Shown: positions 3,460 through 24,530 of the stretch, piece after piece
Layout of the letters: each line of letters starts with the position of its first letter
Position numbering within the stretch: position 1 is the stretch's first letter
Virus record (IMG/VR): IMGVR_UViG_3300005573_000004
Coordinates: 85,962-149,961 of that record
From: a virus
Strand: one strand, 5' to 3'
Length of the DNA stretch: 64,000 nucleotides
The notes under the pieces: model-generated
What the model was told of the DNA's origin: nothing
Database searches by the model: none
Seen by the model: only the letters and a program-made list of their open reading frames with translations
Program-made: the position numbers and the translations under genes

Positions 3460-5241
3460 ATGCTCCAAGAACTAGACCCAATATATTTTATAGAGAAGAA
3501 TTTTGAATTAAATGGCAAGCATTTTACTTTAATAGATGATAAACTAGAAAATGCTCGCCATTATATTCGTGGTATTTATTATACCATAGCATTTACTTTG
3601 CCTAAAATAAAGAAGCCTATGGTTATTGTAAAAGGTCGTCAGGTTGAGATGTCAACCACGATGAGTAATATTATAGCGTATTTTACAGAGACATATCCAT
3701 ATTTTAAAACGTTATATGTTACTCCTGCTCTTGAACAGATGAAGAAATTTTCTGGAGAAAAAATTTCTCCGTTACTAAGATATAAACGTAATCCAGATAT
3801 TTTAAATCCTTTAGCCAAACAGGAGGATATTGAAGGAACGTTTACAGTTAAAATGAAACAGTTTTCGAATGGATCTACTATCTATTTAGAATCAGCATCA
3901 GATGAAGGAAATAGGATACGTAGTATTTCCGCAGATATGTTAATAAAAGATGAGTATCAGGATTTTGATGAAAATGCAGAAAGCAATATAGACGAAGTTT
4001 TAAGCCATTCTGCTTGGGGTTTAGATATAGCTTTAGGTACTCCGAAATATACAGAGACTAATTTTGAAAGAAAATGGAAGAGTTCAACTCAGCATTATTA
4101 TCATTTACAATGTCCATCGTGTAAACATTGGTTTGTATTGAAATTTGATTTATTAACTACAGGATTTAAAGTTCAATGTCCGAATTGCCATCACGAAGAA
4201 GACAAAAGAGCACTAATTCCGCACGGGAAGTGGATACCATTAGGTAATCCAAATGCCTTATATATAGGTTATCATTTATCACAGCTTTATGTTCCTTGGA
4301 AGTCTAAAGAAAAACTGGACCAAAACATAAAGGAAAAGCAGGAAGCTGGAATTAACGTTGAGAAATATTTAAAAAACGAAATTTTAGGAGAATTTTACGC
4401 TGGTATTTCTCAAAAACCTCCGACAGAAGCTATTGAACGTGCTTTTAAGCGAGATTTGCCTTATAATATTATTATTCCTATTTCTCGTCCAGTTTATGCT
4501 GGAGTTGACTGGGGTGGATGGAGTGCTTTGGAAGATGACCCGACACAATGTTATACTATTTATGCTGATGGTACATTAACAGAAAACGGAGTTTTATTTG
4601 TTAATTATATGGAAGTTATAGATATGCAAGATGATATAGAAAAAGCTGATAGAGTTGCACAATTAATGGAGCAGCGTCGTGTTAAATTATGTGTAGCTGA
4701 TAGTGGATATGGCAAAAATCAATGTTTGCGTTTATATTCAAAGTTTCCTACTAGATTTTTGCGTTGCAAATATCTTCCAGGATCATCGCTTACTTTAATT
4801 GATACTAAATCAGAAATAAAATCTGGTCTTATAAAAGCTAATATAGATTATTCATTAGAAGAGCTTTATTCTGCGATGCAGCAGGATAAAATACATATTG
4901 CTCGAAATCAATATACAGAAAGATTTATAGAACATTTTAAGAACTATGAAATAACTTTACAAGAAACGCATAATCATGTCCATAAACATTTTCAGAAAGT
5001 AAGAGGAAAGAAAAATAAAGTAGATGCAGTTCACGCAATCAATTTTTTACGTTTAGCTGCGTTACACGATTCTAATGCTTTAGAGCATTCAGATCTACCT
5101 GTAGTAGGTGGAGAAAGTATGCGTCCTAGAGCATATCCTTTATTAACTGGGCATTCATTGGAAGAATTAAAATATAGAGCACAAATGGGTAATCCATTAG
5201 GAGTTCTTAGTAGATCCATTAGACGCACAATGGGTGAATAA
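3460..5241 (+). CDS. terL: Terminase large subunit (lambda GpA-like)
   Basis: VKGRQVEMST Walker A variant, LIKDE Walker B, GTP coupling motif, CPSC/CPNC zinc motif, GVDWG RNase H-like nuclease domain. Confidence 0.9.
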   Translation: MLQELDPIYFIEKNFELNGKHFTLIDDKLENARHYIRGIYYTIAFTLPKIKKPMVIVKGRQVEMSTTMSNIIAYFTETYPYFKTLYVTPALEQMKKFSGEKISPLLRYKRNPDILNPLAKQEDIEGTFTVKMKQFSNGSTIYLESASDEGNRIRSISADMLIKDEYQDFDENAESNIDEVLSHSAWGLDIALGTPKYTETNFERKWKSSTQHYYHLQCPSCKHWFVLKFDLLTTGFKVQCPNCHHEEDKRALIPHGKWIPLGNPNALYIGYHLSQLYVPWKSKEKLDQNIKEKQEAGINVEKYLKNEILGEFYAGISQKPPTEAIERAFKRDLPYNIIIPISRPVYAGVDWGGWSALEDDPTQCYTIYADGTLTENGVLFVNYMEVIDMQDDIEKADRVAQLMEQRRVKLCVADSGYGKNQCLRLYSKFPTRFLRCKYLPGSSLTLIDTKSEIKSGLIKANIDYSLEELYSAMQQDKIHIARNQYTERFIEHFKNYEITLQETHNHVHKHFQKVRGKKNKVDAVHAINFLRLAALHDSNALEHSDLPVVGGESMRPRAYPLLTGHSLEELKYRAQMGNPLGVLSRSIRRTMGE

Positions 5242-5261: not shown

Positions 5262-8024
5262 ATGTATATAAATAGTTCTACTCCTCAAGGACAGTCAAAT
5301 TTTTACAAAAAGATAGCTTCACAGAAACTTGCAAGAGGCAATCAAGGATTTACACGTAAAGCTTCAGTATTTGGATATGGTACAGGATCGGATTCTGTTG
5401 GTATGCCTCCAGTAGCACTTAGTGGTGGACAGGTTAGCCGTATGGCTATGAAGCCGTTCAGTCCATTATACCAAGAATCCAATTTAATGTTGCCAAAAGA
5501 TAGAAAGACAATGAACGCCTACAACAGGCATTATTATGAAACAGATTATTGGGTTGGGAATATTATTGATTTACATACTTATTATCCACTTGGTGGATTT
5601 GATATTATTTCAAAAAATAAAGATCTAGAACGTCTAATGATTCGTGCAGCTGATCGTGTAGATTTATTAAACATAGTATTAGGGGTTGGGTTAGAATATT
5701 GGGTTTATGGGGAAGCATTTCCGTTCTTAGAATGGGATAAAAATACTATGATGTGGAGCAGAGCAACTATATTTAATCCTGATTTAATGGAAGTTCGAAG
5801 AACCATATTTATGGATAAACCAATTATTACTTTAATTCCTGATGCTGAATTAAAGAGAATTGTTACTTCTACACACCCAGCGGATGCAGTATTGCGTGAA
5901 CAAATTCCGAGAGGAGTTTTGGAATATGTTTTAAAAGGTGAGAATATTCCATTATCATCAAGAAATATATCTCATATTCTTAAAAAGACCGTTCCACACG
6001 ATTTACGTGGAACTTCTATTATTCAAAGAGTTTGGAAAGAACTTATGTTACGTGATGCATTCAGAGAAGTATTATTTGTTATTGCTCAAAACCATATTAC
6101 TCCATTAAAGATATTCAAGATTGGTGGAGTTAATAAAGAATATTATCCAAGTTCTGATGAATTAGCAATATGGCAAGGAATTATTGAAGAAGCACAGAAC
6201 GATCCGAATTTTAGTATTATAACACACGAAGGATTAGAAGTAGATTATAAGGGTGCAACTGGACAGATTCTAGATGTTCATTCATATTTAGAGCAAATAC
6301 AAAATAACGTATTGACAGGTTTATTTGCTTCTAAAGCTATGACATCTGGTGATGGTCCGTGTTATGATTGTCAAACGGAAGTATTAACTGAAAATGGATG
6401 GAAGAAATATGAGGAAGTTTTAGAAAATGAAAGGATAGCAGTTTTTGATCCTGAAACTCATAAAATAGACTATGAACTTCCAGAAGAGCGGCATTATTGG
6501 TTAAATGATGGTAAAAAAGATATGATCCATTTTGAAACTCAGCATATAGATGTTTGTGTAACTGCAGACCATAATATGCACGTTTTGCGTGACGGTAAAT
6601 GGATAAAGATTCCTGCACAAGAGGTACGTTTAGGAGATAAATTTTGTGGACATTTAGAATGGGAAAGTCCAATTGAACCAAAACCTATAGTAATTGGTGA
6701 TAAGATTATAGATCCAAAAATTTGGATGAAATTTTTGGGCTATTTTATTTCAGAAGGTTATATTAGTTATAATAAATCAGAACACGAGAACGGACCCAAT
6801 AGTTTTACTTATCAAATACGTATACCACAGAGTAAATTAAGAAATCCAGAAACATTTGCAGATATAGAGGAAACGCTAAAGGCTATGGAATTTACTTATT
6901 CTATCATAGAGAAATCTCCAAAAGGATCGGAAAGCTATGATTTTATTATTTATTCAAAAGAGTTAGTAGAATATTTAGAAGAATTATTTGATGTAGTTCA
7001 AATAAATTCGTATACTAAATATATTCCACAAGACTATTTAATGTGGCCGAAAGAATATTTAAGTTTACTTTTACAAACATTGATGTCTGGAGATAGACAT
7101 ATTCGTTATTCACATAAGAAGAGAGGGCATTATTATGCGTACTCTACTTGTTCTGAGAAATTGGCTGATTCTATACAAGAACTTATTTTAAAGGTAGGAT
7201 ATTTGCCAACTAAGAGATGGGATCCTTATAGTGGAACTTCTGGGTTATGGCGTGTATATTACTCAACGAATTCCCCAGATATTGTTACGCCAGGATTAGC
7301 TAGTGCAGAACATATAAGTAAACTAGATGGCTATAAAGATTATGTATGGTGTTTTAAAATGCCATCAGGTGCTTTTATAACGAGACGTAATGGTAAAATT
7401 GGTACACATTTCAATACATATGCAAACGCACAAGTAGCTTATGAAATTCTTCAGAAGCGTTATGTTTATTTTAGAAATGTTATTGAGAGATGGCTTAAGA
7501 ATAAATTTTTCCTTCCTATTTCTATTATGCATGGTTTCAAAAATAAAGAAGGTGGATATGATGTACCACAGATTAAATGGTCTCGTATGGATTTTAATAA
7601 AGATGATGCTTGGAGAAATAAAGTTATTGAACTCAATCAGTCAGAGAAAAAACTTATTTCTGATAGAACTGTTGTTACGGAACTCGGTTTTGATTATGAT
7701 GAGCAACAGGAACTTATTCAGACAGAACGTATTGCTCAACAAGCACAAAAAGAAAAAGCCAAAGCAATGGCTAAAGGAGAAGAAGGTGGAGCTGGTGGTT
7801 TAGGAGGTTTAGGTGGAGGTTTAGGTGGAGGTTTGGGAGGCGGACTTGGAGGTTTAGGTGGAGGTGGAGGTTTGGGTGATTTAGGTGGGGGAGGAGGTTT
7901 AGAAGGTCTAGGTGGAGGAGGAGAAGGCGGACCAGAACTTGGAGGTCTTGGTGGTGGCTTAGAAGGTTTAGGTGGTGGCGGTGAAGGTCCAGAATCAACA
8001 GCATTTGGTACACCTGGAGAATAG
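5262..8024 (+). CDS. Portal protein containing an intein, with Gly-rich C-terminal tail
   Basis: Follows terL. YWVYGEAF and ISHI...DLRGTSII portal-like motifs; spliced junction reads GDGP|TYANAQV. Confidence 0.85.
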   Translation: MYINSSTPQGQSNFYKKIASQKLARGNQGFTRKASVFGYGTGSDSVGMPPVALSGGQVSRMAMKPFSPLYQESNLMLPKDRKTMNAYNRHYYETDYWVGNIIDLHTYYPLGGFDIISKNKDLERLMIRAADRVDLLNIVLGVGLEYWVYGEAFPFLEWDKNTMMWSRATIFNPDLMEVRRTIFMDKPIITLIPDAELKRIVTSTHPADAVLREQIPRGVLEYVLKGENIPLSSRNISHILKKTVPHDLRGTSIIQRVWKELMLRDAFREVLFVIAQNHITPLKIFKIGGVNKEYYPSSDELAIWQGIIEEAQNDPNFSIITHEGLEVDYKGATGQILDVHSYLEQIQNNVLTGLFASKAMTSGDGPCYDCQTEVLTENGWKKYEEVLENERIAVFDPETHKIDYELPEERHYWLNDGKKDMIHFETQHIDVCVTADHNMHVLRDGKWIKIPAQEVRLGDKFCGHLEWESPIEPKPIVIGDKIIDPKIWMKFLGYFISEGYISYNKSEHENGPNSFTYQIRIPQSKLRNPETFADIEETLKAMEFTYSIIEKSPKGSESYDFIIYSKELVEYLEELFDVVQINSYTKYIPQDYLMWPKEYLSLLLQTLMSGDRHIRYSHKKRGHYYAYSTCSEKLADSIQELILKVGYLPTKRWDPYSGTSGLWRVYYSTNSPDIVTPGLASAEHISKLDGYKDYVWCFKMPSGAFITRRNGKIGTHFNTYANAQVAYEILQKRYVYFRNVIERWLKNKFFLPISIMHGFKNKEGGYDVPQIKWSRMDFNKDDAWRNKVIELNQSEKKLISDRTVVTELGFDYDEQQELIQTERIAQQAQKEKAKAMAKGEEGGAGGLGGLGGGLGGGLGGGLGGLGGGGGLGDLGGGGGLEGLGGGGEGGPELGGLGGGLEGLGGGGEGPESTAFGTPGE
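6360..7415 (+). mobile_element. Intein (352 aa) with LAGLIDADG-type homing endonuclease domain
   Basis: Starts CYDCQTEVLTENGWK (block A), VTADHNM (block B), FLGYFISEG and LQTLMSGD (endonuclease motifs), ends FITRRNGKIGTHFN with +1 Thr. Confidence 0.92.
7783..7990 (+). repeat. GGL/GGGG low-complexity coding repeat in portal C-terminus
   Basis: Repeated ggaggtttaggt-type units encoding GGLGGLGGG... Confidence 0.9.
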
Positions 8025-8026
8025 TC

Positions 8027-9193
8027 ATGAATTTCTTTAATAACTCATTGCGAGGTGTAGATATGAAAATATCCAAGGCAGCTGAAATTGCCATAGATTT
8101 AGATGGAACTTTAATAGAAGATAGATTTCCGTTTCTTGGCAAACCTATTGAAGCAAATGTAGAATTGGTGCGTAAATTACACGATGCTGGTTATCGTATT
8201 GTAATTTTTACTGCAAGGCTTACTACTAGACCAGGTGATAAAGCAAAAATTGAAAAATTTCTACGTGATCGTGATATTCCATTTGATAAAATTACAAATG
8301 TAAAACCTAGTACAGCTTCAGTTTTTATAGATGATCGTAGCATTAATGTTAAATATAATGAAAACTGGCCAAGAAATATTATAGATCGTATTAAAAAGAT
8401 TATAAAAGACCATAAAGATGCAAAAGCTAAATTAAAAAAAGCGTCTTTAGAACATCCAGATACAATAGTGTTCAAACCAAATGAATATTATACGCAAGGA
8501 TTGACAGAACAACAAGTTTTTGATTATTATAATAAGTATGCAAATCAAATTGTTGAACAGCTAAAAGATAAACCAGTAATGATTGTGATAAGAACACCTG
8601 CTGGAGATATAATTAGAAAGAACGACCCAGCTGATGGAACTCTTACTATTTCAAATATTGAAGATTTTAATAATAAATTAAATACAGGTAGAACTATTGA
8701 AGTTCATAGAATATTAAAAGACGAAGAAAAATTTGGTCTTGTAGATGTAGATCCAAGACCGGAAGTACCATTTGAAGATACTAAAAAACTAACCCAAGAA
8801 TTAGTAGATTTTTTAAAGGAAGCTTTTAATGATATTTTAGATAACATTCAGGTTTATTTTAGTGGGAATAGAGGATTTCATATATATCTAAATTGGAGAA
8901 AAGAGATGAATGTCACTGAAATGCGTCAAGAACTTAGAAAGGCACTTGAAAATTTTTTAATTCAAAAGAAAGATCCTAAAGTAAAATTAGAATTACCCAC
9001 TAGAAATGATGAGACCAGGTTAGATATTACAATTTATCATCCTGGTGGCTCTATTAGAGTTCCTTATTCTTTACATAAGAAAACAGGTTTAGCTGCTATA
9101 CCAGTTAATAATATTATGGAATTTGATCCAAAATCGGCTATTATTGTAAAATCAAAAGGTAGTTATATTAACCTAAAATTTTTTAAAAAATAA
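8027..9193 (+). CDS. HAD-superfamily phosphatase fused to LigD-type archaeo-eukaryotic primase/polymerase domain
   Basis: N-terminal DLDGTL, FTAR, K and FIDD HAD motifs; C-terminal DVD, FSGNRGFHIY and RVPYSLH AEP motifs. Likely start is ATG 8063 after GAGGTG. Confidence 0.8.
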   Translation: MNFFNNSLRGVDMKISKAAEIAIDLDGTLIEDRFPFLGKPIEANVELVRKLHDAGYRIVIFTARLTTRPGDKAKIEKFLRDRDIPFDKITNVKPSTASVFIDDRSINVKYNENWPRNIIDRIKKIIKDHKDAKAKLKKASLEHPDTIVFKPNEYYTQGLTEQQVFDYYNKYANQIVEQLKDKPVMIVIRTPAGDIIRKNDPADGTLTISNIEDFNNKLNTGRTIEVHRILKDEEKFGLVDVDPRPEVPFEDTKKLTQELVDFLKEAFNDILDNIQVYFSGNRGFHIYLNWRKEMNVTEMRQELRKALENFLIQKKDPKVKLELPTRNDETRLDITIYHPGGSIRVPYSLHKKTGLAAIPVNNIMEFDPKSAIIVKSKGSYINLKFFKK

Positions 9194-12278: not shown

Positions 12279-12458
12279 ATGGCATTTACAAAAGTTGGTG
12301 ACAGTATTATCACAAAGATAATGGATGTTAAAGATGGTAAAATTGTAAAGACCAGTGAGGTTAATAGTATTAGTAATGTATGTCCTAAATGCGGTAAAAA
12401 TCCGTGTGAATGTACTAAAACTCAAAATTTAGAGGAAAACAATGGACTTAAAAGATAA
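12279..12458 (+). CDS. 59-aa protein with CPKCGKNPCEC motif (not in ORF track)
   Basis: Manual translation MAFTKVGDS...VCPKCGKNPCECTK...; ATG directly after the upstream TAA, with GGAG upstream. Confidence 0.65.
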   Translation: MAFTKVGDSIITKIMDVKDGKIVKTSEVNSISNVCPKCGKNPCECTKTQNLEENNGLKR

Positions 12459-14931
12459 GATTACTCAAATTTTTAATTATTTAGAAAACAGATCTATTGC
12501 TAATCCAGAAGAAGCGGCTCAGATGCAAAAGCAAGCTGTTATGAAAGAAAGAGAAATTTTTGAGAGAGCACTTATAGATACAGTTAAAAGTGGTGGAATG
12601 TCTTATGATGAAGCCGTGGCTAGAGTAAAGGCTTCAGATTTTTCACCATTAGACCAAAATATAATTTTAGCAAATATAGGTCATCTTGAAGCAAATCTAC
12701 CTATAAAAACAGCTAGTCAAAAATCTATGGAGGTTGACACTATGGACCCAGTTTCAAAGGAAATTGAGGAATTAAAAAAACGTCTTCCTCATTACGGGGC
12801 ATTTGTCGAAAATGTTTTAAAAACTTCTTATTATTTGGGCACTGGTGATAAAGCAAAACCAGATCCTCAAGGTGAGAAAGTTTTTAAAGAAGACGAAAAA
12901 TACGTTGAACAATCTAAATCAGAGGAGGCTAAAAGAATGAGCCAGACAGAAAAGAGAATTAATCCAGAAACAAGACTTTATCCAAAAACCGCAGGAACTG
13001 ACAAGTATAATACGAAAGCTCCGGAAGATCTTAGAGAATCGTATGCTCCAAAACACGATCAATGGGACAATGATGTTTTGGATAAAGAATTAGCTGACAA
13101 TAAAAAAGGTCAGAGCGAACAGGAACGTCGTACGAAAGAATTGCAGAAGAAGAGAGAAGAGTATTTAAGAGCAGCAGACAAAGTAGATGTTAAATTTTCA
13201 CACGCATCTAATGCATGGGTTATTTCAGAAAAAGCAACTGGAATTCCAATAGTGATCGCTTCTGTAGAAGATATCACAGGCAATCATCCTATTAGTCCAG
13301 AAGCATTAGCAGAATTAAAGAGTGATAAATTTGGTGAATTAATTAAGGAAGATATCAAAGAAAGTGGATTAGAAACTACAGCAAGAAATTTACTTGGTGA
13401 TACTTTTGATAAACTTGCTGCAGAACACGCGTCTTCTATAAAAACAGCCGAAGAGAAAGCAGATATGAGAGTGAAACTTGAGACTCTTAAAGATATTTAT
13501 GCTTCTCTTAAAGAAGGTCTTGGTAAATTAACAAAAGTAGCTTCAGTTTCTAGATTATTTAAAAGAGCAGTAGAAGCTATTCAAGATGCTGAGGAAGCAG
13601 TAGAAACTGATAAAGATAATGCTCCAGAAGCAATTTCTGATGCAGCAGAAGCACTTACACCTATAAGTGATATGGGTCTTGCAATGGAAGGCCAGAGTGA
13701 ACAGCCTGATGCAAATAAACTTGCAGAAGAAATTAAAGCATCAATTTCTGACCCAGAAATTCAGGCTAAAGTTGATCAGTTAGTAGATATGGTACTTTCT
13801 TCAAATTCAGGTACTACTCCTCTTATTGAAAATGAAATAGGAGAAGCAGAGGAAGAGATAGGAAAAGCAGAAGAAGAAATAGGAGAAGCAGAAGAAGAAA
13901 TAGGAGAAGCAGAGGAAGAAATAGGAGAGGCAGAAGAAATAGGAGAGGCAGAAGAAAAAGAGGAAAAAGGAAAGAAAGAGAAAAAAGAAGATAAAGAAGA
14001 AAAGGAAGATAAAGGCAAAGAAAAGAAAACCTCTGCAGTTGTTGCAGCACTTAGGAAACTTGGTGCTGATAGAGGCAAAGGCGATTATGATGTAACAAAA
14101 GGATTTAGCCTGGATCAGATGGGTGAACATAACAAAGGAAACATCACTCAAGATGGTAAAAAGTTTATGACATGGGAAACATTAAAGAAGCAATTTGAAG
14201 CTTTAGTAAATAAAAAACCTACAGGTAAACTTGTTGCTAACTTTGTAAATGAATTAGTAAAAACAGCAGCTGGAACTGGGGTTATGTCAGCAGAAGAAGT
14301 TTATAGATTAGCATTTGGTCCTGAATATGCAAAACAATTAACAAAGGAAATGACACAGAAACAAATTCTTAAAGAACATGATAGATTAACAAAAGACACA
14401 GATAATGTATATGCTTCTGCAAGCGAAGCTTATATGAGTGGTGCAACAAGGATGAAGCTTGCAATTGAAGCTACGCAGAATATGGTTAAAAAAGGTTTGA
14501 TCAAAGAAGCGGATAGAGAAGCATTTGATCGTCAGGTAGATAATTTTATGAAAATGGATGAAGATACATTTAGAGCGTTTATGGATTCAACTGAAAATAT
14601 AGTAGCAACGTCAGAACTTGAAGATGGTAGATTTAAAGTTGCAGCTTTAGACAGACCAGACGAATATGGAAACATAGTGACAGGTTGGATTGATGGAAAA
14701 CACGTTGCATCTATGTCTGGTGAAGATATAAAAGCTCCAAATGGTAAAGTAACAAAAGCACATTTAGCAAACGCAATGCATTTATTAAAACAGGCATTTA
14801 AAGAAGGGCTCTTTGATGAAGAGCTTTCTGATGGTAAAGTTCCTACTGATGTTCAGGGTGTAGACTTAAAAGGCTTGAACGTTGGACAGGAATCATCTAA
14901 ACCAGTTTTGAAAGTAGAAGATTTAATATAA
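12442..14931 (+). CDS. Capsid scaffolding / prohead core protein
   Basis: Highly charged and coiled-coil-like, directly upstream of decoration and MCP genes, many K-x-A motifs. Confidence 0.7.
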   Translation: MDLKDKITQIFNYLENRSIANPEEAAQMQKQAVMKEREIFERALIDTVKSGGMSYDEAVARVKASDFSPLDQNIILANIGHLEANLPIKTASQKSMEVDTMDPVSKEIEELKKRLPHYGAFVENVLKTSYYLGTGDKAKPDPQGEKVFKEDEKYVEQSKSEEAKRMSQTEKRINPETRLYPKTAGTDKYNTKAPEDLRESYAPKHDQWDNDVLDKELADNKKGQSEQERRTKELQKKREEYLRAADKVDVKFSHASNAWVISEKATGIPIVIASVEDITGNHPISPEALAELKSDKFGELIKEDIKESGLETTARNLLGDTFDKLAAEHASSIKTAEEKADMRVKLETLKDIYASLKEGLGKLTKVASVSRLFKRAVEAIQDAEEAVETDKDNAPEAISDAAEALTPISDMGLAMEGQSEQPDANKLAEEIKASISDPEIQAKVDQLVDMVLSSNSGTTPLIENEIGEAEEEIGKAEEEIGEAEEEIGEAEEEIGEAEEIGEAEEKEEKGKKEKKEDKEEKEDKGKEKKTSAVVAALRKLGADRGKGDYDVTKGFSLDQMGEHNKGNITQDGKKFMTWETLKKQFEALVNKKPTGKLVANFVNELVKTAAGTGVMSAEEVYRLAFGPEYAKQLTKEMTQKQILKEHDRLTKDTDNVYASASEAYMSGATRMKLAIEATQNMVKKGLIKEADREAFDRQVDNFMKMDEDTFRAFMDSTENIVATSELEDGRFKVAALDRPDEYGNIVTGWIDGKHVASMSGEDIKAPNGKVTKAHLANAMHLLKQAFKEGLFDEELSDGKVPTDVQGVDLKGLNVGQESSKPVLKVEDLI
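13834..13956 (+). repeat. About 6 x 21-bp tandem repeat encoding (EIGEAEE)n
   Basis: gaaataggagaagcagaagaa-type units. Confidence 0.9.
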
Positions 14932-15083: not shown

Positions 15084-15872
15084 ATGGGTTTTTTCAGACC
15101 AGTAATGGCTGTTAACAAACCGGCTAGCTTTCCAATTGAAAGTGGCATAGCATTTGAACGCGGCACGTTTTTATGGTTCAAAAAAGGTAGTGGTGTCGCA
15201 ACAACTGATCGTGACGCTACTTATCAGCCACTTGGAATAGCAGATGATGACAAAACGGATAATGTTACAGCCAAAATTCAGAACCAGGTGATTTCTTATA
15301 CTTTGGTTGTTAATTCATCAGGTAATGCAACAGCAACATATTCACTTGGTCGTACAATCGCGAAAGATTCTGTAATAGAGACTGCAATTCAAAAACCAGC
15401 TTCTTGGACACTTGTTTCAACACCTAATTTAGATGGTACATCAACTTTTACATTGTCAGCAGACGGTATATTGACGCATAATGTTACAGGTGCAACTGCA
15501 GGTACATACAATGTAACCTTAACACTTGATTATTCTTATGTAAAATCAGCATCACAGAATGGCGGAGCTGCTATAGTAACAGATATGTTTAACAACAATA
15601 GCACAGCAGCGTCTCAATTAGTTACAGTTTGGTTCATGGAAGGAATCTATGAATCAGACCAATATGATCCTTACGTAAGTTATTCAGTTGGTGATCCAAT
15701 TTATGCAAAAAATGGTGGTATTTTAACTTCTGACAGTACAAATGCAACAAAAATTGGGTTTATTACAAAAGTTCCGTCAACAAACTGGAACGCAGAAACG
15801 AAGACAACTCTTGGGCATTCACAGCCGAAACCAGAAGCTGTGCAATTCCTTATGAGATTGTCTCTTGTATAA
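15084..15872 (+). CDS. Head decoration / capsid cement protein
   Basis: Lies between scaffold and MCP. PLGIADD...VTVW...G.YESDQYD...Y.VGD.IY...G.LT motif with an inserted T-rich domain. Confidence 0.7.
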   Translation: MGFFRPVMAVNKPASFPIESGIAFERGTFLWFKKGSGVATTDRDATYQPLGIADDDKTDNVTAKIQNQVISYTLVVNSSGNATATYSLGRTIAKDSVIETAIQKPASWTLVSTPNLDGTSTFTLSADGILTHNVTGATAGTYNVTLTLDYSYVKSASQNGGAAIVTDMFNNNSTAASQLVTVWFMEGIYESDQYDPYVSYSVGDPIYAKNGGILTSDSTNATKIGFITKVPSTNWNAETKTTLGHSQPKPEAVQFLMRLSLV

Positions 15873-15888
15873 GTGGAGGTAATTAACT

Positions 15889-16920
15889 ATGCAGATAATT
15901 AAAACAGGTACAGGATTTGACAGAAGGGCAGATGTATCCTTCGGCAGAGATGGCAACATCAATGCTTTTGATAGACAGGATGCAATCAATCGTATTGCAA
16001 AATATTTAACTGCAAGCGAACAGCCCACTTATGATGAGAGAGTGTCTTCGTTATTTTCTGAAGAAGAAAAAAACCACCTAATTAACAAATTTGCATCACC
16101 AAACGTAAGGTTAGTAATTGGACAGGCAATGGCCAGTCCATTAAAAACGTTCTTAGAATACAAGGGCGTTATGAGACGTGCATTAAAAGTTGATCCGCTT
16201 GCTCCAGGTGCTATTCCGATTTACGATCGTGATACAGAAGAAATTTCAGCTGAGCCGATTGCTTCCCAGTCAGCAATTACTCAGACGAAAATAGTTGGGG
16301 AACGTATCATGGTCCCAGTTTTTGAAATCGCAGCGAACCCAACTATAAAACTGCGTGAGGTTAAAATTCGCAGATTTAACATAATTGACCGTATACAAGT
16401 TCGTACACGTCAATTTATGCAGGAAGCTGAAGACGCAAGTATTATAAACTTGTTAAATGCAGCTTCTACTTTGGTTAACTCTCCAGTTGTAGTTGACACT
16501 TCTGCAAGTGGAAACTCACAGGGTTATATCCAGAGAAAAGACTTGGTCAAGCTTGCTCGAGAAATTGAACAGCATGACTTATTTGCAGTATCTATGTTCT
16601 TTTCAATTTACAGATATGCAGATATCAAACAGTGGGGTACACAAGAATTGGATCTTGTAACCTTAAAACAGGTTATAGATACAGGTCTTGTAGCTCAGTT
16701 ACATGGGCAGAATATCTATGTGACAAAGAAATTGCCACATGATATAGTACTCTGCACTTCAGATCCTGACTATGTTGGCGTGATGCCAGTATATCAGGAT
16801 ATTGAAGTAATCCCTGCTGATATTCCTTGGGAAACCTCATTCGGATGGGCGTTCACAGAGCTCATTGGAATGTCGGTATTTAACCCGAAGGGCGTCAGTA
16901 AGTTAGTTATTTCAAAATAA
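15889..16920 (+). CDS. Major capsid protein (HK97 fold)
   Basis: 343 aa, after scaffold and decoration genes. YKGVMRRAL.VDPL..GA.P.YDRD, VPVFEIAANP and QEAED motifs; codon usage differs from neighbours, as expected of a highly expressed gene. Confidence 0.88.
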   Translation: MQIIKTGTGFDRRADVSFGRDGNINAFDRQDAINRIAKYLTASEQPTYDERVSSLFSEEEKNHLINKFASPNVRLVIGQAMASPLKTFLEYKGVMRRALKVDPLAPGAIPIYDRDTEEISAEPIASQSAITQTKIVGERIMVPVFEIAANPTIKLREVKIRRFNIIDRIQVRTRQFMQEAEDASIINLLNAASTLVNSPVVVDTSASGNSQGYIQRKDLVKLAREIEQHDLFAVSMFFSIYRYADIKQWGTQELDLVTLKQVIDTGLVAQLHGQNIYVTKKLPHDIVLCTSDPDYVGVMPVYQDIEVIPADIPWETSFGWAFTELIGMSVFNPKGVSKLVISK

Positions 16921-17091: not shown

Positions 17092-17682
17092 ATGGCTGAA
17101 AATCCAAACAAAAATCAAAACAAAGATGTCAATAAACACGTAAATAAACCCTCAATGCAATTAGATACAATGGAACTTGCCATTGTTAATGCTATTAAAA
17201 AGAATATTTTTGATTTAGCAGCTCAATGGGTAAATAATCTTTCAGCTGATCAAGCTAAAGCACTTTATACTCAATTAGGGGAAGGTAATATTGATTTTGG
17301 TAAACCTGAAGTTCTTTCTTTAATGAAAAAATTTGATGCTCAAATGAAGCCAAATTATTATGGACGTAAATCTTTTATTTATTATATACCTTTCGCTATT
17401 AGGGAAGCTATAAAAAATAAATATGCTAGAGAACTTAAATTAACAAATAGTTTCGTCAATATTAGATTATTCCATAAATATGCTAAAATTCCAGAAAGAC
17501 CATATTTAGTTAAAAATAGTAAAGTTTTGTTACCAAATAATCGTGGTGTTGGAGTATTGGAAGATGATCCAGAACTTTTAGAAAGCTTTACTGGATTTGA
17601 TTGGATTGCTCGTGTGAAAGCAGAAAATCCAGTACATTCTGGAATATATTATGTGTCAACGCTAAAAGAACTGAAAAAATAG
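17092..17682 (+). CDS. Hypothetical protein
   Basis: GGAG RBS; internal SFVNIRLFHKYA leader-like motif. Confidence 0.6.
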   Translation: MAENPNKNQNKDVNKHVNKPSMQLDTMELAIVNAIKKNIFDLAAQWVNNLSADQAKALYTQLGEGNIDFGKPEVLSLMKKFDAQMKPNYYGRKSFIYYIPFAIREAIKNKYARELKLTNSFVNIRLFHKYAKIPERPYLVKNSKVLLPNNRGVGVLEDDPELLESFTGFDWIARVKAENPVHSGIYYVSTLKELKK

Positions 17683-17695
17683 GGGTAATTTCAAA

Positions 17696-18517
17696 ATGGC
17701 GTTACCTGCACCAACAAATTTTGACGCAGATTATGAAACGTTATCTAGAGATAGATTATGTGTAACATTATGGTGGGAAGAAGATCCACGTGCAGCATAT
17801 TATCGCCTTTATAGAGATACCGATGTGCGTGAAATTCGTCCTCCATATGAATATAAAACTGTAGATGGAAAAAAGTTTATAGTTTATCGTGATGTAGAAG
17901 CTTGGTCAGCAGGCCAAGCTTTAGATTTATTTTATTGGGTTGCAGCAGTAGAAAACATTGCTCCCTCAGGGAGTCCTCCAATCTATCAAGAAGGGGCCCT
18001 CTCAGACGCTATCACCAATTTACATCCTTTCGGACTTAGGGTCATTGAAGAAGCCAGATCAATGATCGGTGATGATTTACGTATTTTTAATGATAAAATG
18101 AATAAAGTCCAAGAACAAATTTCAATTTATAATTATAAAATAGCTATGGATCAAGCTTTGAGTGCTATAAATTCAACTCCGACTTTTACCTCATATACTT
18201 ATGGAAGTATTCCATATGAATTTAAACATTTATTAACTCTTGGAACATTAGTTAATGTCCTACCAAAATTAATTCTTTTAGAAAAAGCAAAAGCTATGCA
18301 ATTTGAAGATCAGGGGCAACAGTGGACTCCTCCTGATTTATCAGCAGCATTTGAAACTAGGCTAAAAGAATTAAAAGAAGATTTTAATACACTCAGAAAA
18401 GAAATTAAACATAATGTTCGTCCAAATCCAAGAGGAGTTGGTAGTTTAAAAGCTTTATTTATCAGTCCACAAATGTTAAAATGGCGTCACGTTCCAACTG
18501 GAAGAAATTTCTTCTAA
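17696..18517 (+). CDS. Head-tail adaptor / neck protein with N-terminal Fn3-like segment
   Basis: Position after MCP. PAPTNF...W...YYRLYR...YWVAAV (Fn3-like) followed by ALSAINSTP...F.DQG adaptor-like segment. Confidence 0.6.
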   Translation: MALPAPTNFDADYETLSRDRLCVTLWWEEDPRAAYYRLYRDTDVREIRPPYEYKTVDGKKFIVYRDVEAWSAGQALDLFYWVAAVENIAPSGSPPIYQEGALSDAITNLHPFGLRVIEEARSMIGDDLRIFNDKMNKVQEQISIYNYKIAMDQALSAINSTPTFTSYTYGSIPYEFKHLLTLGTLVNVLPKLILLEKAKAMQFEDQGQQWTPPDLSAAFETRLKELKEDFNTLRKEIKHNVRPNPRGVGSLKALFISPQMLKWRHVPTGRNFF

Positions 18518-18528
18518 GGAGGAAAATC

Positions 18529-18693
18529 ATGGTAAAAATAATAGAATTTTTATACGGAATAGTAAAAGATTATATAATAAAACAAGCGAATGCTACAGGT
18601 AATAATGCTTTTATAACTAAATTTGAGATAGCTTTTAGGATCATTGAAGAAACTTGGAATGAGATTAAAGCAATAAAGCAAAATTTGAAATAA
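18529..18693 (+). CDS. Small hypothetical protein
   Basis: AAGGAGG RBS before ATG 18529 (MVKIIEF...), in frame with track ORF 18481. Confidence 0.5.
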   Translation: MVKIIEFLYGIVKDYIIKQANATGNNAFITKFEIAFRIIEETWNEIKAIKQNLK

Positions 18694-18699
18694 ATAAAA

Positions 18700-20274
18700 A
18701 TGAGCTTTGTAAATTTCAAAAGATTAAGTAGTATAATTGATTATCCTAGGAGTGGTCTAGATAGTAAAGTTTGGACTACTCAAGGGATTTTAAAACCTAG
18801 AATTAAAGATTTTATTTTAAAAAAATTAGATAAGTTTTTTAGAAGTAAAGGATATACATTAAATGAAATTTTAAGTGCAGTTAATGCTGTATATTTTATA
18901 GGTTCTTTGACATCTTATCAATATACAGATAAGACAGATTTGGATATTCATTTCCATTTTGATCAGAATAAGATAAAAGATGTATTAAGAAGACACGGTC
19001 AAATAGTAAAATCTAATGAAGAGCTTGATGAGATATTAAATAAAGAATGGAAAGATGCTATTGATGAAGATATAATACCTGGAACTCAACATCCTCTTGA
19101 AGTTTATTTTGAAATTGACGGGTTTACAAAGAGTGATAATAGTGATGGAGTTTATGATATTCTTAACGATAAATGGTTAAAAGAACCCCCTTCTATTGAG
19201 GATGATTTTGATGTAGAAGAGATATATCCAGCAGCAGTAGACGAAGCAATTGATATTATGAGGAATATTGATGATAAAATTGGACATATAAAGCGTGAGA
19301 TAAAAGATATTAGTCTTTTAAAGGAAACTCTTAGATCTTGGGATAAAGGTAAGAAAAAATTATTTTTTAAAAAGCTCTTAGATAAAATAGATACAATAGA
19401 AAAATCAATACGAGATATAGTAGAGATGGGTTCTGAAATTATAGATAATAGACAAGATGATTACGTAAAACAATCAGAAGATAATATTAAATTTAAATAT
19501 TTACAGAGATATAAATATATTTGGCTTGTTAAAAATCTGGAAGATGCTTTAGAAGATGAAAAAGAAAAAATTCAAGTTGAAGATGATGATGATATTGAGA
19601 GAATTAGGATAATTTTGAAAGAATTTGAAGATAAAGATACGAGTAAAGATATAGAATTTGAAAAAAAGGAGAGTAAAATGAGTTTTATAAATTTTAAAAA
19701 ATTAGGTTTAGGTTTTGGTTTGGGTCCTGGTGCAGGATTCGGGTTAGGTCCTGGTGTAGGAAGAGGTTTAGGTCCTGGTGCAGGTTTAGGTCCTGGTGTA
19801 GGAAGAGGTTTAAATCCTGGTGTAGGAAGAGGTTTAGGTTTAGGTCCTGCAGGATTAGGAAGAGGTTTAGGCCCTGGTGCAGGACTCGGTTTATGTTTGG
19901 ACCAAGATGTAGGACTTACACCTTCCGATCCTACTTTAGTACAACCAGATGTTTCTATAGAGGTTCCTAAAGAAGTTTTTCCAGAAACTCTTCCAGAAGG
20001 TTCGTCAGCGACTTCTTTAGAAATTCCTTCTGGAATACCTGAAGGAAGAGAAAGAGATTATGAAATTTTAAAAAGAGATATCATATTGGAGCAAGCAGCT
20101 ATTGACGAATATCGTGGACAACTTAGGGATGCTTCTCCAGAAGTCAAAAAGATATTGGAACATTTAATTAAGGAAGAAGAGGAACATAGGAAAGAATTGG
20201 AAGAATTAATAGAAGAAATAAAATCTAAACCGTCAGGCAATACAACGGACGAAATCAAAGTTATAGAATTGTAA
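18700..20274 (+). CDS. Pol-beta-superfamily nucleotidyltransferase fused to GLGPG repeats and a C-terminal ferritin/rubrerythrin-like domain
   Basis: GSLTSYQY...DLDIH (GS..DxD); C-terminal E..AI..Y...EE..H di-iron-type motif; internal RBS+ATG at 19678. Confidence 0.7.
19704..19890 (+). repeat. (GLGPG[AV]GR) coding repeats
   Basis: ggtttaggtcctggtgtaggaaga-type units. Confidence 0.85.
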
Positions 20275-20302
20275 TTCTAAGTTCTTTTATAATTTTTTCA
20301 TA

Positions 20303-20476
20303 ATGAAAAAACTGAACAAAGAGAAAATTGAAAAATGTGAAATGTGCGGTATGTTCACAGTCGAGACTATTAAAGTAGTAGGTCCAAAAGGTTTCGTGCA
20401 TTTGTGTGTTTCTTGTTATAATAAATTTTTTAAAAACAGATATAAAAAGTCAAATAGGAGTTCAGAACATGAATAA
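20303..20476 (+). CDS. 57-aa CxxC...CxxC zinc-finger protein (not in ORF track)
   Basis: Manual translation MKKLNKEKIEKCEMCG...HLCVSCYNKF; weak RBS. Confidence 0.5.
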   Translation: MKKLNKEKIEKCEMCGMFTVETIKVVGPKGFVHLCVSCYNKFFKNRYKKSNRSSEHE

Positions 20477-21308
20477 TAATTATTTAAAACAATTAAAAGC
20501 TGCAAATATGTGGTTACGTAGAATAGCAGTACGAACACCGGAACAGACTGTAAAACAAATTTTATCTGATCTTAGAAAAGTTAATAAAGAATTAAAAGAT
20601 ATTCGTGCTGCTGTAAAAGATGGAAAATATTCAGAAATTTCTGAACAAGTTCAAGCTGCTATTTCTTATTTACAAGCTATTGACCACGTATCAAAATCTC
20701 CAACTGCAAAAGCTATAGAAGAAAAACGTGAGAAAAATCTAGCAAAAAATATATCTGAAACTAATGAAGAAGATGAAGATGATGAATCAGAAGAAACAGA
20801 TAAAGCAGATGAGTCAGAAGAAACGGATGAGGATATAGATAGATCTTTAGGACTAGGATTTTTAACTACAAAGTCTAGACTTTTATCTATTATTAAGAAT
20901 TCTGCAAAAGATTTTCCTACATCTTGGGAAGAGCCTATGATGGAAATTAAAGGTTCTATGAAAGTTGAGATAGTACCTCAAGGAAATGATGAATATTTAA
21001 TTAAAGGATATTGGATGACAGATCCAAAATTTAAAGCAGAGAAAAAAATTAAAGGATTAGATCAGATAAGTAATGCTATTATAGAACTTGAATATATGAT
21101 TTTAGATCAAAAACCTTTAAAACCTGGAAATTCTTCTAATAAGACAAGTTCTAGTATTAATTTTGATAAACTTGGTAGAATTGTAAAAGAAAAAGGCGGA
21201 TATTACGTCAAAAGTGAAAAAGGTAAAAATCTTGGTGGGCCATATAAAACCAAAGAAAAAGCGAAAAAAAGGCTTCGCCAAGTAGAATATTTTAAACATA
21301 GAGGGTGA
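20469..21308 (+). CDS. Multi-module putative internal head protein
   Basis: ATG 20469 after AGGAG (track start 20406). Acidic linker; C-terminal basic KSEKGKNLGGPY...A.KRLRQVEYFK module preceded by SSINFDKLG. Confidence 0.6.
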   Translation: MNNNYLKQLKAANMWLRRIAVRTPEQTVKQILSDLRKVNKELKDIRAAVKDGKYSEISEQVQAAISYLQAIDHVSKSPTAKAIEEKREKNLAKNISETNEEDEDDESEETDKADESEETDEDIDRSLGLGFLTTKSRLLSIIKNSAKDFPTSWEEPMMEIKGSMKVEIVPQGNDEYLIKGYWMTDPKFKAEKKIKGLDQISNAIIELEYMILDQKPLKPGNSSNKTSSSINFDKLGRIVKEKGGYYVKSEKGKNLGGPYKTKEKAKKRLRQVEYFKHRG

Positions 21309-21312
21309 TTAA

Positions 21313-21630
21313 ATGTCCAGTTTTATAAATTTCAAAAAATTGGCCTCGATGAGTTCTAATAAAATAAGAAAAATTTCTACTAATTTGTTGGAATGGATAG
21401 AAAACACAAAAAAGATGAATGAGAAATATCCAAGTCTTGTCAATTTTTTAGAAGCGGTAAAGGAACATTATTTGAGGAATTTTAGTGATGATCCAAAAAT
21501 AAGACAGATGGGGATTTCTCTTGAACAAGCTAAGAATATAATTTCTTCTGCTCTTGGCAGACATAAAGAATATAATTTAGATTTTCAAGCGTTACATAAT
21601 GCAACAGAAACATATTTTTCAAAAGACTAA
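21313..21630 (+). CDS. Leader-bearing putative internal head protein
   Basis: Starts [12 protein letters not shown]. Confidence 0.6.
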   Translation: MSSFINFKKLASMSSNKIRKISTNLLEWIENTKKMNEKYPSLVNFLEAVKEHYLRNFSDDPKIRQMGISLEQAKNIISSALGRHKEYNLDFQALHNATETYFSKD

Positions 21631-21639
21631 CTACTAAAT

Positions 21640-22005
21640 TTGAGGTGTTTTATGGAAGATGCACAGCTTAAGTTAATTTTAGAATCTTTAAAAGAATTAA
21701 AAGATGAGGTTAAATCTATTAAAAAGCTCCTAAATGGAAACGGAGAAATTGGTTTATTAGAAGCTCATAGAGATTTAGAGCAAAAATTTACTAGTGTTAG
21801 CGTAAGAGTTCGTGCTATTGAAGAAGATGTTAAACCATTAAAAGAGTCTTCTTTTAAAAGAAATACATTAAAAGAATTTGTCAAACAAATTGGGGTTATT
21901 TTAGCAACTATGTCGCCTATCATAATTCCTACGCTTATTTGGATGACAAAAATTTGGGACAAACTTAATCAGTTAGTTCCATTGGATACAGTTATTAGAA
22001 AATAA
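21640..22005 (+). CDS. Coiled-coil membrane protein (holin/XhlA-like candidate)
   Basis: Coiled coil with LNGNG..GL motif and a single C-terminal hydrophobic segment; likely start ATG 21652. Confidence 0.45.
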   Translation: MRCFMEDAQLKLILESLKELKDEVKSIKKLLNGNGEIGLLEAHRDLEQKFTSVSVRVRAIEEDVKPLKESSFKRNTLKEFVKQIGVILATMSPIIIPTLIWMTKIWDKLNQLVPLDTVIRK

Positions 22006-22022
22006 AAGGAAATAAAAAATTT

Positions 22023-22472
22023 ATGAGTTTTATCAATTTTAAAAAAATGACAAAAATATCTAAAGAATGGTTTCCGAATTTGGAACCACACGAACAATAT
22101 TCATATGTTACTTCTCATAGTAACCAGCCAGAATTACTAAAAGAGTTATATCCTAGTGCAAAAGATGATATAACTCGTTTGGAAATAGTAAATATAACTG
22201 GAGATAGTGATCTTGCAGAAAGATTATTTATTAATACTAAATATCCGTTAATAAAAGCACGTCTTGTTCCTTTTATAAAAAATAAGGAGTTATTAAGAGA
22301 CTTTTTTGTATCGTATATTAATTCTGCAGAAGCATTACGAAAAGTTAAAACACGTTTAACGGATGAACAAAATAGAGCTTTAATCCAAAGTATGAAAGAA
22401 CTTCATTTGTTGCCTGATAATATAAATACAGAGTTTGAAGATATGAAAAAAAGAAATCCAATGATAGACTAA
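22023..22472 (+). CDS. Leader-bearing putative internal head protein
   Basis: Starts [13 protein letters not shown]. Confidence 0.6.
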   Translation: MSFINFKKMTKISKEWFPNLEPHEQYSYVTSHSNQPELLKELYPSAKDDITRLEIVNITGDSDLAERLFINTKYPLIKARLVPFIKNKELLRDFFVSYINSAEALRKVKTRLTDEQNRALIQSMKELHLLPDNINTEFEDMKKRNPMID

Positions 22473-22488
22473 GGAGGATAAAAGGTAT

Positions 22489-23379
22489 ATGTTTACTAAA
22501 ATTGCAGAATCAGCAATTATAGATATTAAATCAAAACCTTTAAATTTGTTTGAAGAATTAGCACAAAGGCACGCTACAGAATATGCCAAAGTTGCTACAT
22601 TGGGAGAGGAAGATATTCGTAAACAGAATTATAATTTATATAGAACTATAGCAGAAAAGAAACCGAATCTGTTAGCTTTTGCAACTCGTGCTATTTCTGC
22701 ATATGAAACTTGGGGTCCAAACAAGAATGGAGATGCTTTTGAACGTGCAGAATTAGAAAAATATTATCCTACATTTTTTATGCGTCCGCATTTATTGGAC
22801 CACAGGATGGAGATCCCATATATTCGTGGAATGATAGCTGGAAGTTATTGGCGTCCTTTAACAAAAACGGCATCTAATAGACCAGATGGAGATTATGTAG
22901 AGACTTTAATTTTTGTAAATAGAGATGATTTTCCAAAATATGCATCAATGGTAGAAAACGGTACTGTAAATTCGTTTTCTATGGGTGTCGAAGTTCAAGA
23001 AGCTGAGTGTAGTCATTGTCATAACATAGCCAGAAATCCATCGGAACTCTGTGAATGTGTTTCAAGGTTAAAAAATTTAGTAGTTGGAGGGCGTAAAGTT
23101 TTCGAATTTAACCGTGGTTTGAATTTTATTGAACAATCTGCTGTAGTAAGTCCAGCTGATGTTGATTCACATACTTTGTATATTTTAGCTAGTGTAAAAA
23201 ATACAGCTCATCAAGATGTAGAAAGATTAAAAAAGATAGCTTCTGTACTTGATAGTTATTCAGAAACTGAAAAACAAATAAGACGATACGAATATCAGAT
23301 GTTAGAAGCATATGCCAATCAATTGGCAGATAAGATAATGCTCGATTTAAATATTCTTCCAAGGAGGCCCAATTTATGA
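22489..23379 (+). CDS. Prohead maturation protease (HK97/herpes-type fold) with Cys cluster
   Basis: N.NGDAF...EL, LLDH (His), SFSMG (Ser) and FIEQSAV..PAD motifs; CSHC...CEC insertion. Confidence 0.75.
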   Translation: MFTKIAESAIIDIKSKPLNLFEELAQRHATEYAKVATLGEEDIRKQNYNLYRTIAEKKPNLLAFATRAISAYETWGPNKNGDAFERAELEKYYPTFFMRPHLLDHRMEIPYIRGMIAGSYWRPLTKTASNRPDGDYVETLIFVNRDDFPKYASMVENGTVNSFSMGVEVQEAECSHCHNIARNPSELCECVSRLKNLVVGGRKVFEFNRGLNFIEQSAVVSPADVDSHTLYILASVKNTAHQDVERLKKIASVLDSYSETEKQIRRYEYQMLEAYANQLADKIMLDLNILPRRPNL

Positions 23380-24530
23380 GCTTTGTAAATTTTAAAAGAA
23401 TTGCAGCAGAAAGGAAAGTTAGAGCTTTATGGAGACGTGCGAACCAGAATTTGCCTTTGTTTTTGTCACAGTTAGAAGACACTTTTCAATCACCAGAGGT
23501 TAAGAAAAAGTTTCAAGATTTAAAGAAAAGATATCTTGAGAATCAGATTGCTGAAAAACTGCTTTTACAAGAATTAACCAAACTTTTAGAAGAAGATATG
23601 AATTATATAGATAAGACGCAACACGAACAAGATAAAAATCTTTTTGCTCCACCTATATCAAATCCAAAAACATCTAGATCAACATTTAGAAATACTCGTT
23701 TACTAACTGCCGAACAGTTTAATCTTTTATGGAAGTTTTCAGGTTTTGATATTTTATCTTTCTTATTAAAATTAAAGAATTTAGTAAAAGATCCTCAAAG
23801 TATAAAAGAATTGGACGCTTTAAAAAAAGCATATTTAGCTAATAAAATGGACGAAAAGACTATTTTAAATAGAGTTCAATATATATTAGATAAAGATATG
23901 GCTTATACGGATGCTTTTTATCGTCAAAGAGATAGAGAATTATTTTCTCCAAAAACTAACAAAGCCAGTTCTTTATATAATCGTAGATTAGTTATTGCAA
24001 ATTTATGGAAACGCGCCGATAAGGATCCTATAGTTTTTTTAGATGAATTGATAAATAATAATACATTTCAGACTCCAGAAGTGTTAGAACAAGCTAAAGC
24101 TTTAAGAGCTAAAGCTGATAAAATGGATAAACGTGTCCTTCTTGATAAAATACAAAAATTACTAGATGAAGATGCTGAATTGTCTCTAGAATCTGCAAAA
24201 GATAGAGATATAGAAATAGCTAAAAAGGATCCATTTTATGCTAGACAGTATGAGACTCCTGACTATGACTTTACAAATACAGATACAGAAGAATGGTCAC
24301 CAGAGGATTATAACGTTATAAATATTTTTGAATCTAATAATAAAAAAAGTTCTAATTTTAAAAATAAAAGATATATTTTTGGAGAAGAAATATCAGATGA
24401 AGATTTAAATAGTATACCTACTGATCCAGATAAAATTTCTGATTTTGCGCAAAAGAAGAGAGAGTTGGCAGATAAAGCGGAAGAAATAGGAAAGATTTTG
24501 CAGGAATTGAAGCAATTGAAAAAACAATAG
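23376..24530 (+). CDS. Leader-bearing protein with three internal ~90-aa helical repeats
   Basis: Starts [11 protein letters not shown]; repeats of LW(R/K)....FL..L...L..D. Confidence 0.65.
   Translation: MSFVNFKRIAAERKVRALWRRANQNLPLFLSQLEDTFQSPEVKKKFQDLKKRYLENQIAEKLLLQELTKLLEEDMNYIDKTQHEQDKNLFAPPISNPKTSRSTFRNTRLLTAEQFNLLWKFSGFDILSFLLKLKNLVKDPQSIKELDALKKAYLANKMDEKTILNRVQYILDKDMAYTDAFYRQRDRELFSPKTNKASSLYNRRLVIANLWKRADKDPIVFLDELINNNTFQTPEVLEQAKALRAKADKMDKRVLLDKIQKLLDEDAELSLESAKDRDIEIAKKDPFYARQYETPDYDFTNTDTEEWSPEDYNVINIFESNNKKSSNFKNKRYIFGEEISDEDLNSIPTDPDKISDFAQKKRELADKAEEIGKILQELKQLKKQ

Follow-up and report, generated by a model that had tools for sequence, protein, structure and literature searches.

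In bacteriophage T4, internal proteins are attached to the prohead core by a capsid-targeting sequence that the prohead protease gp21 then removes (PMC3012670, PMC7411985), and in herpesviruses the protease-scaffold fusion protein is cut after an alanine (PMC4498786). Here we describe a short peptide tag that is shared by otherwise unrelated proteins in the head gene region of an uncultured phage, IMG/VR record IMGVR_UViG_3300005573_000004. The window, by which we mean the whole stretch of DNA analyzed, is the final 64 kb of this virus record, which is complete at 149,961 bp and has terminal repeats. All genes of the head region, with the tag copies and half-sites described below, are on the plus strand. 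In this lineage, the tag probably plays the part that the capsid-targeting sequence has in T4, acting in docking and probably also in cleavage. The principle of a shared capsid tag is known from T4; we found no paper in the literature that describes the motif.

The original observation was that a common leader opens otherwise unrelated proteins at 18700, 21313, 22023 and 23376 and recurs internally at 19678. All five copies are present at these positions. When the whole genome was searched in six frames, F-[IV]-N-F-K-[KR] was found five times, compared with 0.03 times in base shuffles, and all five matches lie at 18706-23382, within the head module, with none elsewhere in the genome. We also used the coordinates of 19 copies to construct a position matrix; in open reading frames (ORFs) of at least 80 amino acids, it reached a score of at least 13 only at the five strong copies. 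Four of these are found directly after a start codon: copy 1 (18700-18732, matrix score 25.6) at the N-terminus of a 524-amino acid ORF, copy 3 (21313-21348, score 25.9) at that of a 105-amino acid protein (21313-21630), copy 4 (22023-22055) at that of a 149-amino acid alpha-solenoid protein (22023-22472), and copy 5 (23376-23408, score 28.8) at that of a 384-amino acid scaffold-like protein. Copy 2 (19678-19710) is internal in the 524-amino acid ORF and follows an in-frame ATG. Once the tags are removed, the tagged proteins have no mutual similarity (BLASTP E > 0.2 for all pairs), confirming that the leader is borne by otherwise unrelated proteins. The codons used differ among the window copies and far more among relatives, where those for Ser, Val/Ile, Asn, Phe and Lys/Arg vary freely; conservation, and with it selection, is therefore at the level of the peptide, as had been proposed.

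Of three degenerate copies suggested previously, only that at about 21153 was upheld. This decayed tag (21150-21179) precedes the small basic module of a three-module protein; the orthologous position in a relative (L010) scores 19, and the same module, internal in the window, has its own gene opening with the tag in another relative (L089). The stretches at 17449 and 9161 were rejected as tag copies, since both score below 8, which is chance level. The former (17449-17484) is a weak tag-like stretch without statistical support within a 196-amino acid ORF, and the L006 orthologue of that ORF stops shortly past a stretch resembling it.

The prohead protease encoded beside the tag has 22 homologues in public data (49-80% identity), and the analysis covered the DNA of eight relative loci (L006/L010, L007/L087, L088, L089, L090, L091, L092, and L093, with L010 and L006 on one contig). 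A nine-residue core, S-[FY]-[VI]-N-F-[KR]-[KR]-[LIV]-[ASG], is retained in seven related genomes with proteases of 51-80% identity; it was derived from the 25 scoring head-module copies, which come from six genomes. The Ser at position 0 and the Asn at +3 are near-invariant, and the small residue at +8 ends the conservation, which drops away after these nine positions; upstream, only the start Met is conserved. One extra match (score 16.3) is not in any ORF and probably arose by chance. The tag is found in the relatives on orthologues and on differing modules, often at the module junctions of polyproteins. The window, L006, L007, L089, L090, and L091 differ in module content, and all of them retain the tag. 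A half-ferritin unit, for example, is a stand-alone 82-amino acid gene product in L006, is fused in the window, and is the second module of a 643-amino acid polyprotein in L090 that contains several modules and four tag copies. Unrelated modules are likewise joined in one head-module polypeptide in the 524- and 300-amino acid ORFs of the window and in three multi-module proteins of L091, a locus with six copies of which five are truly internal, without an ATG or ribosome-binding site. In L088/L093 and in L092 there are fewer cargo proteins and the tag has drifted, to F-I-Q-x-F-basic-basic in L088/L093 and to A-Y-I-N-V-K-L-A in L092.

That unrelated modules carry the tag, and that the same module occurs with or without it or in other gene contexts, agrees with the earlier proposal of a portable element. 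Its description as an N-terminal leader fits four window copies but does not hold as the sole position, since most copies in the relatives are internal, at module junctions. Three pattern matches outside the head module on the 106.7-kb contig of L007 (CheckV completeness 67%) are out of frame or low-scoring. A metagenome scan with the protease alignment found nothing beyond two known contigs, and 185,579 species genomes contained no relatives of the phage. The exact DNA pattern of the tag was matched in IMG/VR by 72 stretches, nearly all of them unrelated chance matches or other small families, and only known relatives were added.

The near-invariant Ser and Asn might suggest that the tag is recognized by a modifying enzyme or a chaperone, and it could also act as an element at the RNA level. 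The protease, however, is the sole recognized enzyme in every locus examined, which makes a modifying-enzyme tag unlikely; a nucleotidyltransferase-like (NTase-like) enzyme encoded in the window is missing in L006, where the tags persist. An RNA element is opposed by the free variation of synonymous codons and by the internal copies that have no start signals, and we regard this class of explanation as barely credible.

The NTase-like enzyme is the first module of the 524-amino acid ORF (18700-19677). It contains a G-S...D-x-D motif, weak matches to Pfam palm domains, and an Atlas value of 0.97 to viral NTP_transf_2 clusters; a search of PDB sequences gave nothing usable for it. Copy 2 of the tag follows, and then a Gly-rich linker of 66 residues (19705-19902) and the two-helix half-ferritin (20053-20271), which matches Pfam Rubrerythrin with an E value of 3e-4, under the Pfam cut-off. 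At the internal copy, AGGAG is found six bases upstream of the ATG (site 19660-19680), and copy 2 is probably the nested start of a product consisting of tag, Gly-rich linker and half-ferritin. Together with the separate 82-amino acid gene in L006, this internal AGGAG and ATG suggest that the 524-amino acid ORF arose by fusion through stop-codon loss and probably contains a nested start. Internal tag copies in L010, L089, and L090 are likewise accompanied by a strong ribosome-binding site and an ATG, and look like nested in-frame starts that remained when stop codons were lost.

A two-helix ferritin-like cargo behind a Gly-rich linker brings to mind encapsulin systems (PMC8346489), in which a short peptide with a flexible linker guides a two-helix ferritin-like protein into an HK97-fold shell. 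The tag could then be an encapsulin-type cargo-loading peptide: from any position in the polypeptide, it would fit into a pocket that the HK97-fold capsid protein has on its inner face, and it would be left uncleaved. The occurrence of the tag in both N-terminal and internal positions would suit this, its length is about that of encapsulin loading peptides, and the half-ferritin is weakly similar to EncB (E value 0.004 among PDB sequences; EncC, 0.59). Its best PDB sequence match, though, is a bacterioferritin (1.9e-6) and not an encapsulated ferritin, and a word-index protein search with the 82-amino acid tagged half-ferritin returned only itself. Encapsulin peptides are mostly C-terminal and uncleaved, whereas the tag is mostly N-terminal or internal, and it differs from the encapsulin loading-peptide consensus. 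An encapsulin shell is without portal, terminase or protease, whereas the phage has a terminase, portal, protease and decoration protein; it is a true tailed phage, and membership of the encapsulin family therefore fails. We consider an encapsulin-type peptide improbable. A less literal version, in which the tag, wherever it stands in a protein, would dock to the inner face of a phage HK97-fold capsid and load the half-ferritin among other proteins, is distinctly unlikely in our estimate. If it were true, the lineage would be a living link from scaffolding or protease targeting in phages to cargo loading in encapsulins, and the peptide would be a portable packaging tag.

The three-module protein that contains the decayed tag (20469-21308) is encoded by the 300-amino acid ORF, contains W-L-R-R-I-A at 20508-20531, and has an orthologue in L006 with scoring copies. 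Its start is likely to be the ATG at 20469, which has an AGGAG site, rather than the GTG at 20406. A 57-amino acid ORF with two C-x-x-C pairs (20303-20476), zinc-ribbon-like, overlaps the annotated GTG start. In the 149-amino acid protein, the tag is an appendage of 14-15 residues that, in the alignment, is absent from the L088 orthologue. A structural model of this alpha-solenoid has a predicted local distance difference test (pLDDT) score of 80 overall and of about 50 over the first 10 residues, and a fold search with it found only generic helical repeats.

The start of the gene for the 384-amino acid protein (23376-24530) overlaps the protease stop codon (ATGA). The protein consists of the tag, three tandem repeats of about 95 amino acids, and a conserved C-terminal helix; the repeats are similar to one another with z-scores of 11-18. 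The repeat alignment begins at the tag, and each repeat opens with the tag or a decayed copy of it, those of repeats 2 and 3, which are additions to the copies suggested previously, being at 23682-23714 and 23970-24002. By its position and composition the protein is scaffold-like, and a search of PDB sequences gave nothing usable. That a scaffold-like protein is tagged three times means that some tagged proteins may be assembly core and not injected cargo. It also favors an explanation in which the tag would be an assembly-core motif, an element of self-association or scaffold association, and the core proteins would leave before or during DNA packaging, so that the supposed cargo is never delivered to the host. 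The order of protease and scaffold genes is the classical one, and the hydrophobic and then dibasic stretch of the tag is predicted to start a helix. The NTase-like enzyme and the half-ferritin, however, are also tagged and are unlikely scaffolds. We give this explanation a small but real chance; it overlaps with the capsid-targeting reading in placing the tagged proteins in the prohead and differs from it in their fate alone.

The protease gene (22489-23379) matches the head maturation protease family PHROG 18299 (E value 5e-10). A structural model built from the 22 homologues, of moderate quality (pLDDT 67), has T4 gp21 as its top PDB match in Foldseek (5jbl, probability 0.99), followed by herpesvirus proteases; a PDB sequence search gave nothing usable. 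The protein thus models as the T4 gp21/herpesvirus assemblin fold, and the observation that the tags adjoin a prohead protease is borne out. His101/His105 and Ser164 are invariant in the 22 homologues. An insertion in the protease contains invariant Cys174, Cys177, and Cys188 and a nearly invariant His190, possibly a zinc ribbon, and the protease of one homologue (P0018, from L093) carries an intein.

The protease itself has R-L-K-K-I-A-S at 23224-23244, where its C-terminal helical tail joins on. This stretch is similar to the second half of the tag, and across the 22 homologues of the protease family a [RN]-L-[KR]-K-[LIV]-A motif is strongly conserved there. Similar half-sites occur in two other head proteins. 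An 829-amino acid head-module protein (12442-14931) contains a conserved L-[KR]-K-L-[GA]-A at 14050-14067, at a domain junction just past an acidic linker, and this half-site is also kept in L006 and L089. The major capsid protein (15889-16920; PHROG 2522, E value 2e-56) carries no tag. It has an N-terminal extension of 52 residues, absent from phage G in an N-terminal alignment, that includes a conserved basic-I-A-K stretch at 15979-16005 and in some relatives reads basic-basic-[IL]-[AS]-K. We take the half-sites in these three proteins as a lead and not as proof.

A half-site at the protease's own domain junction, a position at which autoprocessing is common in other phages (PMC10052503), raises the question of whether the tag is a protease junction only, that is, the site at which the head protease separates polyprotein modules, with no role in capsid entry. 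Many copies in the relatives are internal and at module borders, and close relatives alternate between fused and split states, as such a junction would predict. Against it, nine residues are conserved in the tag compared with three to four in known prohead-protease sites, and there is no conserved P1/P1' pattern beyond the small residue at +8. A stand-alone protein would, moreover, lose just about nine residues, which suits a targeting tag and not a junction. A role as junction alone is unlikely.

Our preferred reading is that the tag is an address and processing label for the internal head proteins of this lineage. During prohead assembly, the tag would serve each module that bears it, whether enzyme, half-ferritin, alpha-solenoid, small basic module or scaffold repeat, as the means of docking, either at the inner face of the capsid protein or at the core formed by scaffold and protease. 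The second half of the tag (basic-basic-hydrophobic-small) would be the element likeliest to be recognized by the gp21/assemblin-fold protease, which would then split fused modules and trim the tag. Herpesvirus enzymes of the assemblin fold cut after an Ala preceded by a hydrophobic residue (PMC4498786), and by analogy a cut at the small residue that ends the tag is plausible.

Several observations weigh against this reading. There is no uniform cleavage site past the tag among the 25 head-module copies, and only 7 of them have a Glu at +9/+10, so that T4-type Glu cleavage directly after the tag was rejected as a general rule. Known prohead-protease sites require fewer residues than the nine conserved here, and conservation therefore does not distinguish docking from cutting. 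The 3-fold enrichment of the half-site 4-mer in the head module (p = 0.007) is chiefly due to the tags themselves, the half-site in the protease is in a predicted helix and may be structural, and the fold assignment of the protease depends on a model of the moderate quality given above.

Other N-terminal signals were also considered. A leader of ribosomally synthesized and post-translationally modified peptides, a Sec/Tat signal, a prepilin leader and a double-glycine leader were rejected; the "cores" that follow the tag are folded proteins of 100-500 residues, with no hydrophobic or G-G feature past the tag. The tag could, alternatively, mimic the N-terminal extension of ribosomal protein L27 and be removed by the host protease Prp, as in Staphylococcus phage 80alpha. 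There is a superficial likeness, hydrophobic-N-hydrophobic-x-x-hydrophobic-A-S, and Prp occurs in Firmicutes and some Thermotogae (PMC9405229), groups that include thermophiles. The published motif, MLxx(D/N)LQ(F/L)F'A(S/H)KK (PMC9405229), is nevertheless not matched: only the Asn and Ala-Ser positions agree, and the tag has F-K-K-L in place of L-Q-(F/L)-F. The phage encodes its own protease, and N-terminal trimming would not take internal copies as substrates. Removal by Prp is highly improbable.

The half-ferritin provides a view of labels in more distant lineages. A full HMMER search found 27 representatives, of which the closest carry the same tag. Distant homologues with other architectures are preceded instead by W-L-basic-basic-x-A, both N-terminally and between modules, and this motif precedes the half-ferritin in P0026, P0028, P0031, and P0034. 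The same half-ferritin cargo appears with different labels across lineages. A 1199-amino acid LigD-type protein (P0030; L106, 10001-13600, on a 55.8-kb metagenome contig) with ligase, primase-polymerase and phosphoesterase domains has a half-ferritin inserted mid-protein. A W-L/L-W-basic regular expression, which we composed after the data had been seen, matches five times in the genome, always in head-module proteins at 20.5-27.2 kb of the window (20508-20531, 23427, 23727, 24003, and 27202); L-W-basic stretches follow the tag in all three repeats of the scaffold-like protein.

The closest cultured relative is Bacillus phage G, whose gp27 is 40% identical to the capsid protein and whose protease is 32% identical, and next are the cluster C mycobacteriophages. 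No copy was found when the phage G region was scanned with the tag matrix. Phage G (L001, NC_023719) has its own shared N-terminal tag, [ML]-[KR]-R-L-I-K-K-[SAG]. Seven of the nine forward matches to its R-L-I-K-K DNA pattern are right after a start codon (nt 16061, 28224, 73336, 147660, 246000, 254658, and 446715) and are scattered over the 497-kb genome; the DNA pattern showed no genome-wide enrichment over a reversed control. Looser variants are present on gp9, gp10, gp12, gp13, and gp20.

The remaining head genes of the window begin with the terminase large subunit (3460-5241) and the portal (5262-8024). The portal gene contains an intein-like insert, and the portal has a C-terminal tail, some 80 residues long and rich in Gly and Leu, that is reminiscent of the Gly-rich linker in the tagged half-ferritin. 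A 388-amino acid ORF (8027-9193) joins an HAD-like domain to a primase-polymerase-like domain. The decoration protein (15084-15872) is encoded immediately before the major capsid protein. Within the head module there is also an untagged 121-amino acid coiled-coil protein (21640-22005) with a C-terminal hydrophobic segment that is probably membrane-spanning; it is kept in most relatives (L006, L007, L088, L091, and L093).

If the tag loads proteins into the head, the capsid-targeting principle of T4 would extend to an unrelated lineage akin to phage G. Sequence alone would then be enough to tell which proteins of an uncultured phage are internal or delivered, here the NTase-like enzyme, the half-ferritin, the alpha-solenoid and the small basic protein. 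It would also provide a short peptide for packing foreign proteins into a capsid. The half-site common to the tag, the protease tail and the 829-amino acid protein suggests, in a form that can be tested, what a protease family without a studied member may recognize, and phage G, which is cultivable and has a separate N-terminal tag, would be a laboratory system for the idea.

Among described systems, Duda, Oh and Hendrix are said to have shown in 2013 that the C-terminal tail of the HK97 protease targets it to the capsid. We know of no description, in HK97 or the herpesviruses, of copies of such a protease targeting element on many other proteins. In both, the element responsible for bringing the protease into the procapsid is part of the protease itself, and the tail of the protease described here has a tag-like basic-basic-hydrophobic-Ala-Ser motif, a likeness at the level of the motif. 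The giant phages phiKZ, 201phi2-1, and SPN3US (PMC10052503, PMC5694885) resemble this phage in having one prohead protease; there, processing affects many head proteins, with repeated cuts in long precursors, but the long propeptides differ from one another and have only a three-residue A-x-E site in common, whereas here a nine-residue peptide is shared. The strings of unrelated modules in head or transfer modules recall the polyvalent proteins of phages and conjugative elements (PMC5512222), for which processing and delivery along with the DNA are presumed. Unlike in polyvalent proteins, the modules here are small, are often separate genes, and are each headed by one defined peptide. The closest parallel is to the T4 capsid-targeting sequence of IPI-III and Alt: in both cases, a peptide of about 10 residues is found on unrelated proteins, a protease of the gp21/assemblin fold is present (modeled in the case of this phage), and a constant tag is combined with changing cargo. 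The relatives of this lineage are Bacillus phage G and the cluster C mycobacteriophages and not T4. The tag sequence, as originally suggested, differs from the T4 tag, to which it bears no resemblance, and it has no terminal L/I-x-E site. Unlike the T4 sequence, the tag is also found at internal module junctions and on a scaffold-like protein.

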